This document shows, piece after piece, positions 343 through 4,462 of a DNA stretch of 64,000 nucleotides. Position 1 is the stretch's first letter. Every line of letters begins with the position of its first letter. The notes beneath the pieces were generated by a model. It saw nothing but the letters and a program-made list of their open reading frames with translations. It had not been told where the DNA came from and ran no database searches. The DNA comes from Methanobacteriota archaeon. Lineage in GTDB: Archaea > Thermoplasmatota > Thermoplasmata > SG8-5 > JAGLSY01. The position numbers and the translations under genes are program-made. The DNA is taken from the NCBI GenBank assembly GCA_020697715.1, contig JAEHCO010000003.1, positions 96,001 to 160,000 of the forward strand, in the 5' to 3' direction.

Positions 343-693
343 ATGGATGATAAAATGGATGAACTAGAGCAACTTTTACTGAATACGGTCGAGAAATTCA
401 GGGCCAAGATGATAGAGGATGAGGATCTGAGAGAGGAGATGAAGCCCCTGAAGCGCACGATCAATATCGAGCTTACGGATGCGGAAGGCTTCTCCTTTAT
501 TCTGAACCATGGGGACGTGACGGATTTTAAAAGAGGCTATATCGAGAACCCGGATGTCGCTATCCAGATAAAAGAGGCCGATATGTTAGCTCTTCTGAAA
601 AAAGAGCTAAAGCCAATGAAGGCCTGGGCAACTAAGAAGTTGAAATTCGAAGCCGAACTTGAGGATGTTGTCAGGATGCGGAAGTTCTTTTGA
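343..693 (+). CDS. SCP2 sterol/lipid-binding domain protein
   Basis: 116 aa; PDVAIQIKEADMLALLKKELKPMKAWATKKLKF resembles the SCP2 C-terminal pattern. Confidence 0.75.
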   Translation: MDDKMDELEQLLLNTVEKFRAKMIEDEDLREEMKPLKRTINIELTDAEGFSFILNHGDVTDFKRGYIENPDVAIQIKEADMLALLKKELKPMKAWATKKLKFEAELEDVVRMRKFF

Positions 694-1068: not shown

Positions 1069-1470
1069 CTACTCCTTGGGAACAAATTTATAACCATAAT
1101 GGATCACACCACATTCTCCTTCCTGGCCAAGTTTTCTGAAGACAGCCTCGACCTCTGTTCCGATCTTGACTTCATCAGGTTTGACATCGACTATTTGTCC
1201 AGTTATCTTGGGCCCTTCTTCCAGTTCGATTATCGCCATGGTATATGGAACCTGCATGGAGAATGCGGGAAGTCCATCATGCACAACAGTGTATGATATG
1301 ATCTTGCCCTTGCCAGATAGTTTCAATTTCTCCATTTTCCCAATGCTTTCCCTGCGGCATTTCGGGCACAGGTCACGTGGTGGAAAATACACAATACCGC
1401 ATGCACCGCATTTCTTTCCCTGCATATTGTACCTGCTCTGGTTCTCTCTCCAGAATCTTGCAACTTCCAT
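1069..1470 (-). CDS. DUF35 Zn-ribbon/OB-fold scaffold protein
   Basis: CGACGIVYFPPRDLCPKC Zn ribbon, OB fold and C-terminal IHYGYKF; downstream of thiolase. Confidence 0.95.
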   Translation of the reverse strand: MEVARFWRENQSRYNMQGKKCGACGIVYFPPRDLCPKCRRESIGKMEKLKLSGKGKIISYTVVHDGLPAFSMQVPYTMAIIELEEGPKITGQIVDVKPDEVKIGTEVEAVFRKLGQEGECGVIHYGYKFVPKE

Positions 1471-2639
1471 CAGTTACCCCTCCCGAGAATATGAACTATA
1501 CAAGTCGAGCCAGTTCCTCCGATATTATGGATGAGCCCCTTTTCGGCATCCTTCACCTGCCTATCACCAGCTTCGCCTCTTAATTGCAATGTCATCTCAA
1601 CAGCTTGACCAACTCCAGTGGCTCCCATCGGATTTCCCTTCGCTTTGAGACCTCCAGATGTATTGACGGATATCTTGGAGTTCAAAGCAGTCTCACCATC
1701 TTCGGTGGCCTTACCGCCCTTGCCTTTCTCAAAGAAGCCAAGGTCCTCGATCGCCATGATCTCCGATATGGAGAAGGCATCATGCACCTCTGCAAGCTGT
1801 ATGTCATTTGGCCCGATGCCTGCGTATTTGTAAGCTTTTTTGGAGGCTTCGATCGTGGCATCCATCCTTGTAAGGCTTGGTCGGTCATGCAGAGCCATAT
1901 AATCCCCAGCTTGTCCACAGCTCAGGATCTTCACTGGTGAATCCGTGTACTTCTTCGCATCCTCCCATGGACATAATATGACAGCCGCGGCCCCATCCGA
2001 TAGGGGCGCGCAATCAAAGACACCAAGGGGATCTGCCACCATTGGAGCATTGAGAGCCATCTCTAACTTTATCGCTCTCTGGAACTGAGCATCTGGGTTC
2101 ATGGATCCATTAAGATGATTCTTCACGGCCACTGAGGCCAATTGTTCTTTCGTTGTGCCAAAATCATTCATATGTCTTCTCGCCATCATCGCGTACAATG
2201 ATCCAAGGGTTGCGCCAAATACAGCTTCCCACTCTTGGTCCGCTGTGCTTGCCAGAATCTCGGCTGCTGATTCTTCACCAACATCCATCATCTTTTCCGC
2301 TCCTCCAACCACAACTATGTCATGAACACTACTGGCTACTGACATGTAAGCCTGTGAGAGCGCTATTCCACCAGATGCATTTGCCGCTTCCACTCTGACC
2401 GAGGGAAGGTTCCTTTCACCAAAGCCAGAGTAATCGGCTATGAGGGGGGCGATATGTTCCTGGTCGATGAGACGGTCGGCTGACATGTTTCCGACAAACA
2501 TGGCATCGATATCATCACCAGCTATACCAGCATCTTCCATGGCCTTGAATCCAGCTTCGATACCCAGATCTCTGAAGGATCTCTCCCACAATTCACCGAA
2601 TTTCGTTTCTCCTACTCCGATTATTGCTACTTCTCTCAT
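1470..2639 (-). CDS. Archaeal thiolase-family (acetoacetyl-CoA thiolase-like) protein with substituted catalytic residues
   Basis: MREVAIIGVGETKFGELW start; VEAANASG, EVHDAF and KGNPMGATG in place of the canonical VEAACASG, HDCF and GHP. Confidence 0.9.
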   Translation of the reverse strand: MREVAIIGVGETKFGELWERSFRDLGIEAGFKAMEDAGIAGDDIDAMFVGNMSADRLIDQEHIAPLIADYSGFGERNLPSVRVEAANASGGIALSQAYMSVASSVHDIVVVGGAEKMMDVGEESAAEILASTADQEWEAVFGATLGSLYAMMARRHMNDFGTTKEQLASVAVKNHLNGSMNPDAQFQRAIKLEMALNAPMVADPLGVFDCAPLSDGAAAVILCPWEDAKKYTDSPVKILSCGQAGDYMALHDRPSLTRMDATIEASKKAYKYAGIGPNDIQLAEVHDAFSISEIMAIEDLGFFEKGKGGKATEDGETALNSKISVNTSGGLKAKGNPMGATGVGQAVEMTLQLRGEAGDRQVKDAEKGLIHNIGGTGSTCIVHILGRGN

Positions 2640-2696
2640 ATCAGAACCCCTCCATTTCATTTCGGGCTTTTGAATATTCAAATTTTATTTGCATAT

Positions 2697-3749
2697 TCAA
2701 ACACCTCCCATCTTTATCTTGCCGCGGAATTTTGCATAATTCGCATAATCCAGATATATAAGATCTTGATTGGAGCAGTCAAGACTACACCAATCACCTT
2801 TTCGATAATCCTCAATGGAATCCTTAACTGTTATATCAAATCCATCTGACCCAGCTCCTGAGCCATAGGCCATGACAAATATTCTATCTCCTGGGGCGGC
2901 GTGATCCAATACATTGGTCAGGCCAAGAGGTACAGCGCCTGAGTAGGTATTGCCAATTATAGGTGTGAGCAGGCCGTATTTCATTTGATCTGGCCCGAAT
3001 CCCATGCTTTTTCCTATTCTCAATGGGAACTTGCCATTTGGTTGGTGGAAGATAGCATGTTGGTAATCATCAGGTTTAGTTCCCATGGCTTGAAAGAGCT
3101 TGTGTGAACATGCATTGATGTGCTTGAAATACGCAGGTTCACCCGTGAACCTGCCTGCGTGTTTGGGATACATCTGTCCCTCCCTTCTCCAGAAATCAGG
3201 TGTGTCGGTGGTGTATGATACAGTGTGATTGATCTCCGCTATCATATTTTCTTTACCTATCAGAAAGGCTGCCCCTCCTGCCGAGGCTGAATATTCTAAT
3301 GGGTCGCCTGGAGCTCCCTGAGATGTGTCCGCGCCTATCGCCATGCCGTACTTCACCATATCTGACAATACAAGACCCATGCAGGTCTGTATCGCGGCAG
3401 TTCCCGCTTTGCAAGCGAACTCATAATCTGCCGCGGTGAGATCTGGTGCCGCTCCTATGGCCTCAGATACTATTGTCGCTGTTGGTTTCACAGCATATGG
3501 ATGAGATTCGGAGCCAACGTATATCGCTCCGATATCATCTGGACAAACGTCGCATCCTTTCATGGCCTTTCTAGCTGCGGATACCGCAATAGTGATCACA
3601 TCTTCATCCGGGCTTGGTATGGATTTCATCTGGATGCCCAGGCCTTTTCCGCGAGCTGCCCCATCCACTCCCCAGACCTTTCCAATATTGTCTGGAGTGA
3701 TCCTGTACTTGGGCACATACCCACCATATCCAACAATTCCTACTGTCAC
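2697..3749 (-). CDS. Hydroxymethylglutaryl-CoA synthase (archaeal)
   Basis: [19 protein letters not shown] (catalytic Cys), HQPNGKFP and GNTYSG motifs; GTG start after GGAGG inferred. Confidence 0.95.
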
Positions 3750-3775
3750 TGTTAAATTCCTCCTGCATGCTTCAT

Positions 3776-4462
3776 TCAATCACCTATTTCTTTAAATCTT
3801 TCGAGAAGCTCATTTCCTGAGAGCTCGGTTACCAGGAGAATTATATTCTCAAGGGTTGCCAGCCTTATCGCGAGATCATCCACATTCTCTGGTTTTACAT
3901 AGACCACCATGGCTGGTTTCATCGGATGAGCTCTGACAGCTATCATTGGTGATCTTCCATGTTTGACACCAGTGAATAACAGAGCTCTCTCCGTGCTCCA
4001 ACCATACACTTTCATGTAATCCTCTGAGGATAATGTCGTGATGGCTTTCAGACTGTCTATAAGAGTGAATCCATTTATGCTTCTTTCTTGATTCACATCC
4101 GGGTTCAACACCTTTGCCTCTATGAGGTCGCAGAATTCTGCCGCATCCATTGATCTCTTGAACTCGCCCATTCCTATTATGGCCTCTATTCCTATCTCGG
4201 CTCCGAACTGTTTTGTGATCTGGCCGCCTCTTTCCAGGTCTATATAGAGCAGTCCATCCACTATCTTCCTGACAGTGACGACCCCAGGAGATTGTCTCCT
4301 GCCAGCTTCATAATCACTGATCACGGAAGTGGATATTTCCAGATAGTTTGCAAGATCTTTCTGCGATATCTCAAAAAGGGTTCTCCATTTCTTTATGGTG
4401 CTACCAGGCTCATTAGATACGGTGATCTCTCCCGCGATCTTTTGCCTGAGCATCTCGGTCAT
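3776..4462 (-). CDS. XRE-type HTH transcriptional regulator (COG1709-like) of the HMGS cluster
   Basis: N-terminal [27 protein letters not shown]; C-terminal [20 protein letters not shown]. Confidence 0.85.

Follow-up and report, generated by a model that had tools for sequence, protein, structure and literature searches.

What remains of a thiolase in the entry operon of the mevalonate pathway once the cysteine that is acylated in its canonical relatives has gone? The question is raised by a 64,000-nucleotide stretch of DNA (the window) from a Methanobacteriota archaeon placed in the Thermoplasmata (assembly GCA_020697715.1, contig JAEHCO010000003.1, positions 96,001 to 160,000 of the forward strand), in which four closely packed minus-strand genes encode an HTH_3 protein, 3-hydroxy-3-methylglutaryl-coenzyme A (HMG-CoA) synthase (HMGS), a thiolase-fold protein and a DUF35 protein. 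The thiolase-fold gene (1470..2639; ATG at 2639, stop TGA at 1470-1472; 389 aa; Pfam Thiolase_N plus Thiolase_C_1) encodes a homologue of the archaeal-type thiolase ACAT (P0001) and lies between the genes for HMGS (2697..3779) and DUF35 (1069..1470), the gene order of the 6ESQ organisms. This trio corresponds to the thiolase, HMGS and DUF35 chains of M. thermolithotrophicus (6esq_A, 6esq_I and 6esq_E), with E 8.2e-146 for HMGS, which also scores 531.4 bits against NF003274 (cut-off 244), and E 2.4e-39 for the DUF35 protein, a zinc ribbon plus OB fold by Pfam. We consider it likely that the ACAT homologue is now a pseudoenzyme subunit, kept for an HMGS/ACAT/DUF35 complex, and that acetoacetyl-CoA comes from a separate thiolase II.

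Two catalytic residues of the subunit have been replaced. In the phmmer alignment of P0001 with 6esq_A (E 7.5e-112), Asn87 (codon AAT, 2379..2381, minus strand, as for the codons that follow) stands opposite the Cys of VEAACASG, which is the acylated Cys of the CxS motif and aligns likewise in 7yvy_A; Asn336 (AAT, 1632..1634) stands opposite the His of AGHALGATG, that is, of the GHP (GHx) motif; and Ala288 (GCC, 1776..1778) stands opposite the Cys of HDCF. A first-pass annotation of the window, which had located these three codons exactly and proposed the alignment with the Methanothermococcus structure, described the thiolase as lacking its catalytic Cys and His. This is correct for Cys87 and the GHP His, both of which give way to Asn in the alignment with the structure; the essential His of HDxF, His286 (CAT, 1782..1784), is still present in EVHDAF. 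Of the motifs that the annotation took as known for archaeal thiolases, the Cys of CxS and the GHP His stand, but the Cys of HDCF was given too much weight. It does not define an archaeal ACAT: PMC12960953 describes these enzymes by the motifs CxS, HDxF and GHx, the x of HDxF is Cys in 6ESQ and Ala in 7YVY, and HDAF occurs together with an intact Cys and GHP both in the solved 7yvy_A and in the canonical family f16. According to PMC12960953, the archaeal complex makes no HMG-CoA with ACAT H284A or with a replaced HMGS tetrad.

No Cys lies near the old nucleophile motif of the window protein, which has Asn87 and Ser89 there. Sequence comparison gives similar conservation of Cys210 in canonical and Cys-less lineages (0.96 vs 0.93), which means that it has not been gained, while the Cys residues at 288 and 334 are also lost in Cys-less lineages and none is gained. 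With the Cys of CxS and the His of GHx gone and no other Cys gained, the subunit therefore cannot be a covalent thiolase; judged by its sequence, an acetyl-enzyme cannot form on it. The marks of an ACAT that P0001 retains are the HDxF His and the HMGS/DUF35 gene context, and those it lacks are the CxS Cys and the GHx His. It scores 570 bits against the NCBIfam equivalog NF053570 (AcCoTHIOL_METTL), under the cut-off of 600; the one model whose threshold it clears is that of the subfamily NF004720, 'thiolase domain-containing protein' (557.7 bits vs 420).

Neither chance nor sequencing error explains these replacements, because Cys to Asn requires two base changes, because the NAS, HDAF and GNP residues are shared by other assemblies (a same-genus genome at 98% identity, L093, and two loci from metagenome-assembled genomes at 90-93%, L013 and L014), and because the gene compared with that of L013 has a nonsynonymous divergence (pN) of 0.062, far below the synonymous one (pS 0.80, saturated). 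The ACAT homologue gene is intact, with an open frame of 389 codons' worth of protein, and under strong purifying selection. This agrees with the first-pass view of an otherwise intact reading frame beside an HMGS that keeps the Cys of EFACKAG (Cys123, TGC, 3411-3413).

The replacement is by no means peculiar to the window. Neither Cys87 nor His336 occurs in any of the 120 nearest homologues (65-100% identity, from a collection of 5.8 billion proteins, P0001 included), where position 87 is Gly in 88, Ser in 25, Asn in 4, Asp in 2 and Ala in 1. Further out, the Cys-His-His set is found in 91 of 151 family members (the query and 150 representatives clustered at 50% identity); by these motifs, Cys-less forms are common in the wider family. 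Among 80 named genome loci, 29 are Cys-less, 50 canonical and one too short, and the Cys-less ones are labelled Thermoplasmata, Thermoplasmatota or Methanomassiliicoccales-type, or are evident mis-bins; they retain synteny with HMGS (27/29) and DUF35 (28/29), in an order that most canonical loci also have.

A sample of 100 genomes drawn evenly from the window's class, spanning 25 families, gave an ACAT match (E <= 1e-80) in 93. The loci analysed are the best match of 89 genomes, four having been left out: G147 and G089, where the best matches are 43-44% identical and paralogue-like, G138, where the orthologue is split across contig ends, and G148, which is unpublished. The ACAT is linked to HMGS in 86 of these 89 loci, the best matches in G122 (L179), G076 (L181) and G134 (L180) being paralogues without HMGS, and 80 of the 86 have no Cys at the Cys87 position; several of the Cys-less genomes are closed single contigs. 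Taken with the absence of Cys and His among the nearest homologues, these counts confirm an earlier suggestion that the change is lineage-wide in Thermoplasmata. CxS is kept in six genomes only (G051, G066 and G078 of f5; G054 of f8; G063 and G116 of f16), five of which also have the GHP His; in G066 that position lies past the contig end. In-frame stops in two f20 matches are simply the genes' own termination codons, past which the matches extend. Many genomes of the class also carry an extra archaeal-type thiolase, 43-48% identical and with Cys and GHP intact (EAACASS...GHP), which adjoins a distant DUF35-like gene rather than HMGS; the window's genome has none.

The positions vacated by catalysis are not settled on any one residue. 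In a survey of 157 loci (50 canonical and 107 Cys-less, some genomes counted twice), position 87 of the Cys-less loci is Gly in 81, Ser in 7, Asp in 7, Thr in 6 and Asn in 4, and position 336 is Gln in 29, Asp in 28, His in 15, Arg in 13 and Tyr in 11, with others in the remainder; both vary even inside families f9, f13 and f20. The GHP motif is still present in the Cys-less families f12 and f21 and in parts of f9, which are early or recent losers of the Cys, others having Gln, Asp, Arg, Tyr, Asn, Phe or Cys; the HDxF His, too, is missing from f12 and f15 and from some members of f11, f13 and f20. The operon ACAT of f12 (L142-L149, 7/7 genomes) reads EVYDSST, with Tyr for the HDxF His and GHP kept, and this Tyr resembles the YDxF/YDCY motif of the Ltp2/Sal aldolases and of TbSLP. 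Many other relatives (P0070-P0118; L102, L103, L106, L110) carry the sequence EGGGACG, in which Gly replaces the nucleophile and a Cys follows two residues on, where CxS has the Ser that the window protein keeps.

How often was the nucleophile lost? A quick tree of 80 rows had placed all Cys-less rows behind one branch, but the single loss it implied was overturned by class-wide trees and by an approximately unbiased (AU) test. A careful IQ-TREE analysis (53 rows, with the three trait columns removed) recovers three Cys-less groups: a large clade sister to the canonical f5 and f8 (support 97/96), f20, and f21, which is sister to the canonical f16. The single-change scenario appears in none of 200 bootstrap trees, and the AU test, for a group defined by the trait after the tree had been seen, rejects one single Cys-less clade (ΔlnL 49.6, p 0.00013). 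Where Ser occupies position 87, its codon differs by lineage, being AGT in L015 and TCT in f21. These comparisons indicate that the Cys was lost independently more than once.

If the subunit makes no acetoacetyl-CoA, what does? The window's genome (93.8% complete) has three thiolase-fold genes, namely the operon gene, one on contig C11 and a thiolase II on contig C29, and no thiolase-fold protein in it besides the last has a nucleophilic Cys. The thiolase II (392 aa; G000:C29:89916-91082) carries VNKVCGSG, NEAF, GHPIGASG and CLGGG, a complete Cys89-Asn-His-Cys set, and scores 329.9 bits against PF00108 and 457.7 against TIGR01930 (cut-off 240.55). The same Cys-Asn-His-Cys set is found in all of its 120 nearest homologues, every named one of which is from Thermoplasmata or Thermoplasmatota. 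The search for a canonical thiolase proposed in the first-pass annotation thus yields no other archaeal-type Cys thiolase and one intact thiolase II, so that the alternative supply of acetoacetyl-CoA foreseen there has a candidate source, even if the supply itself is conjectural. HMG-CoA reductase is also present in this genome.

Across genomes, thiolase II and the Cys-less state go together. In an initial set of 50 genomes, where PF00108 scores above ~180 bits were taken as thiolase II, the enzyme is present in 26 of 29 Cys-less genomes and in one of 21 canonical ones, an Ignavibacteria bin; in the class sample (E <= 1e-55), where 93 of the 100 genomes have it overall, it is present in 79 of 80 Cys-less and one of six canonical genomes. 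Fisher tests of thiolase II against ACAT state give 7e-10 for the first set and 1e-6 for the class sample, values that are overstated, since related genomes do not count as independent and some members occur in both sets. Thiolase II is followed by the gene for 3-hydroxybutyryl-CoA dehydrogenase (HBD) in the window's genome (L004) and in three others (L188 of G086, L189 of G118, L190 of G008), where 0.2-4.5 kb separate the two genes from the operon; in f21 the pair is divergent from HMGS, with a gap of 242 bp in G086. In most genomes thiolase II and the operon are unlinked.

The partners of the Cys-less subunit have remained intact. The HMGS of the window has its full tetrad (E91-C123-H245-N277), as do all 25 complete Cys-less loci, and the four zinc-ribbon Cys of DUF35 are kept in the window and in 28 of 28 Cys-less loci. 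If a relaxed position is one that is at least 90% conserved in canonical lineages and changed or relaxed in Cys-less ones, then 13 of 140 positions are relaxed in ACAT (57, 86, 87, 129, 132, 145, 146, 198, 211, 243, 289, 336 and 341), none of 113 in HMGS and one of 29 in DUF35 across the 157 loci. The residues newly fixed in the Cys-less clade are Gly, Ala and Ser only, and the number of ACAT positions conserved to at least 90% is 149 in 30 Cys-less rows vs 145 in 50 canonical rows. Relative to HMGS, ACAT evolves ~20% faster in Cys-less lineages (median dACAT/dHMGS 1.20 over 5328 pairs, vs 0.99 over 1007 canonical pairs). Such a pattern suggests that catalysis has been lost while structure and contacts were kept, unlike what one settled new mechanism would leave.

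We hypothesize the following course of events. In the canonical complex, ACAT forms acetoacetyl-CoA on its Cys, and the product reaches HMGS by way of a CoA-binding chamber where the two enzymes meet; DUF35 bridges them. In the putative complex formed by the trio in the window's lineage, the replacement of Cys by Asn87 and of the GHP His by Asn336 precludes the acetyl-enzyme; acetoacetyl-CoA would instead be made by the bacterial-type thiolase II encoded on another contig, which would in this way feed the mevalonate pathway, and the intact HMGS would condense free acetoacetyl-CoA with acetyl-CoA in the manner of its bacterial and eukaryotic counterparts. The dead subunit would be retained since HMGS would need it, along with DUF35, for assembly, solubility and a shared CoA site. 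This dependence is suggested by analogy: PMC12960953, citing Vögeli 2018, states that archaeal ACAT alone is insoluble and HMGS alone inactive, and that the chamber and architecture persist in Phl and Muc complexes with one dead subunit. The first-pass annotation had left the choice between a scaffold and non-covalent chemistry. The former fits better and the latter less well, because what now stands at the once-catalytic positions differs from family to family and even inside families, and the residues gained are all small and inert.

Several observations weigh against this explanation. The tree offers just two independent contrasts between ACAT state and thiolase II, both in the expected direction, and a sign test on them is not significant; thiolase II was not found in one Cys-less genome (G056, 74% complete) and is present in a canonical one (G066, 72% complete). 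Because HBD is its neighbour in all four loci examined, thiolase II may serve mainly in metabolism of the butyryl or beta-oxidation type. Its genes are also heterogeneous, three of them being 39-53% identical to that of the window's genome, so that they may not go back to a single replacement event. Constraint on the ACAT homologue is close to that on the active HMGS and exceeds what a mere brace might require, and the window protein still has His286, without which the canonical enzyme does not work. Finally, HMG-CoA may be made in another way altogether in the window's order, given five genomes of that order (described below) that have HMG-CoA reductase and seem to lack the operon.

The serious rival is a neofunctionalised enzyme that uses the old pocket for non-covalent acid-base chemistry on acetoacetyl-, malonyl- or HMG-type CoA esters, on the model of the Cys-less, DUF35-partnered, SCP2-thiolase-like retro-aldolases Ltp2 and Sal or of the weak malonyl-CoA decarboxylase TbSLP. 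The near-equality of ACAT and HMGS constraint and the retention of His286, an oxyanion-hole residue, speak for it; active Cys-less members of the superfamily exist (PMC12329534), some 40% of the family representatives have no Cys, and f12 has Tyr at the HDxF His position in 7/7 members. We nonetheless regard this rival as improbable for the window. His286 stands in place of the catalytic Tyr and position 288 is Ala, so that the residues which define the aldolases are absent; the gains are limited to Gly, Ala and Ser, and the spread of residues at position 87 (Gly, Ser, Thr, Asn, Asp, Glu) and at position 336 (Gln, Asp, His, Arg, Tyr, Asn, Phe, Cys) would be unexpected under one conserved mechanism, while the operon context with an unchanged HMGS hints at no new substrate.

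It is harder still to maintain that the protein is an acetoacetyl-CoA thiolase after all, either with another nucleophile (Cys or Ser) or by direct Claisen condensation without an acyl-enzyme. Ser87 in 25 of the 120 nearest relatives, the Cys two residues later in EGGGACG, the conserved Cys210 and the JGI annotation of homologues as acetyl-CoA C-acetyltransferase might all be cited in its favor. But around the motif the window protein offers Asn87 and Ser89 and no Cys, Cys210 is equally kept in canonical enzymes and is no replacement, the GHP His that would activate a nucleophile is also gone, Gly is the commonest residue at position 87, and the loss of Cys tracks the presence of a separate, intact thiolase; we judge this reading very unlikely. 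As to a paralogue, assembly artefact or pseudogene with the true mevalonate ACAT elsewhere, several thiolase/DUF35 pairs are frequent in archaea (bioRxiv 10.1101/2024.07.05.601840) and some Thermoplasmata do carry the extra Cys/His-intact thiolases of 43-48% identity, but the idea is scarcely credible for a gene flanked by HMGS and DUF35, the arrangement of the 6ESQ organisms, with class-wide synteny, that has an open frame with the same residues in three independent assemblies and purifying selection, and that belongs to a genome without another archaeal-type Cys thiolase.

Returning to a pseudoenzyme subunit supplied by thiolase II, it is tempting to extend the explanation to a stepwise dismantling, across Thermoplasmata, of the channelling complex that textbooks set at the head of archaeal lipid synthesis. 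Wherever thiolase II occurs the nucleophile would have been lost, at least twice independently, the other catalytic residues would then have drifted, the subunit would have become an obligate non-catalytic partner, the acetoacetyl-CoA docking half of the CoA chamber, and in some relatives the operon would seemingly have gone. We offer this sequence of steps tentatively, as a possibility that may well prove wrong. Five genomes of the window's order (G093, G103, G113, G131 and G139; 85-94% complete) have HMG-CoA reductase and thiolase II; searches of the same five found no HMGS (by protein query, PF01154 or PF08541) and no ACAT-like orthologue, and the whole operon seems to be missing in 5/10 genomes of the order. 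Were the dismantling to be confirmed, the first committed C-C bond of the membrane lipids of this class, cultured members included, would be made by a bacterial-type enzyme.

The remaining features of the locus complete the picture. The thiolase gene is separated from HMGS by a 57-nt spacer (2640..2696, minus strand) that holds a GGAGG 8-9 nt upstream of the ATG at 2639, and the ATG of the DUF35 gene overlaps the thiolase stop codon (ATGA). Directly upstream of HMGS, the HTH_3 gene (3776..4462, minus strand; 228 aa; by Pfam) accompanies the operon in 33 of 80 and 75 of 89 loci by tblastn, counts that are lower bounds since the locus flanks are short, in canonical and Cys-less lineages alike; its product may be a regulator of the operon. 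Promoter and terminator scans of the locus gave no signal above shuffled expectation. An open reading frame with an SCP2 sterol-transfer domain (343-693, plus strand; PF02036, E 2.3e-11) is convergent with the DUF35 gene and has no counterpart at any other locus compared. The third thiolase-fold gene of the genome, on contig C11 (G000:C11; L002 1288-2721, plus strand; 477 aa), is a second Cys-less one, with Gly at the nucleophile and both His kept, and scores 686.9 bits against NF004982 (cut-off 695); a 225-aa Cys-rich zinc-ribbon protein without NCBIfam match is encoded after it (L002 2639-3316, plus strand).

The rationale of the canonical complex is that channelling pulls an unfavourable thiolase reaction forward. 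If most of a major archaeal class indeed runs it with a dead thiolase and depends on a bacterial-type one, then the annotation of Cys-less ACAT genes as acetyl-CoA acetyltransferase is wrong, and metabolic reconstructions of these Thermoplasmata need a different first step. A full-text search of the literature brought up no account of an operon ACAT without the Cys in Thermoplasmata, a search that did not extend to the supplement of Hoshino and Gaucher 2018 (PMC6107057) on AACT homologues without the CH motif. The present analysis contributes counts across the class, evidence that the loss was repeated, a pattern of relaxed constraint specific to one subunit, and the complementarity with thiolase II.

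Among the closest known systems is the M. thermolithotrophicus thiolase/HMGS/DUF35 complex (6ESQ), which has the same three genes in the same order and shares the HDxF His, the HMGS tetrad and the zinc ribbon with the window. The window thiolase differs in having neither the acylated Cys nor the GHP His, so that the channelled first reaction cannot occur in this subunit, and its genome differs in having a separate bacterial-type thiolase. The proposed working mode is instead that of bacteria and eukaryotes, in which a thiolase II of the AtoB/PhaA type feeds a free-standing HMGS; unlike that enzyme, the HMGS of the window is of archaeal type and still has ACAT-like and DUF35 partners. The chain-length factor KSβ of type II polyketide synthases has likewise lost its Cys and is the obligate non-condensing partner of an active subunit, but belongs to a different subfamily with different partners, outside the mevalonate entry complex. 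Much the same can be said of the trypanosomatid SLP and TLP proteins (3zbg, 3zbk, 5ab4), thiolase-superfamily members without the active Cys that are nonetheless conserved, in a different subfamily, with other partners and again not in a mevalonate entry complex. A solved 'putative acyl-CoA acyltransferase' of the same family as the window protein (PDB 4yzo_A) is also without a nucleophilic Cys (VDNTSGSGG), with GHP kept, and offers a structural template for Cys-less members.

The steroid side-chain aldolases Ltp2 and Sal (6ok1, 9myr; with DUF35 domains of ChsH2 or Shy) resemble the window protein in their SCP2-thiolase-like fold, their DUF35 partner and their lack of a nucleophilic Cys, but they belong to steroid catabolic clusters and use a catalytic Tyr in YDHF/YDCY together with a second Tyr or a Cys, whereas the window protein reads HDAF and is encoded beside HMGS. 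In CtSal, according to PMC12329534, Gly occupies the place of the nucleophile and catalysis relies on the Tyr and Cys of YDCY; TcLtp2 relies on a pair of Tyr residues. The window protein has His286 in place of the Tyr of YDHF/YDCY; the DUF35 partner and the missing Cys, which it does share with these aldolases, are common to several subfamilies and are insufficient alone to make it one of them. In PhlACB (PpATase), MucABC (SmaATase) and PfACAT/HMGS-DUF35, as described in PMC12960953, the HMGS/ACAT/DUF35 architecture is kept with one dead thiolase-fold subunit, but there it is the HMGS-like subunit that is dead, without E-C-H-N, and the ACAT-like subunit with its Cys that is catalytic. The window presents the converse and, unlike those complexes, its putative complex stays in primary metabolism; if our explanation is right, it is a natural experiment in how an enzyme subunit becomes a pseudoenzyme after its job has been taken over, and mirrors PhlACB and MucABC, in which the HMGS side is the dead one.

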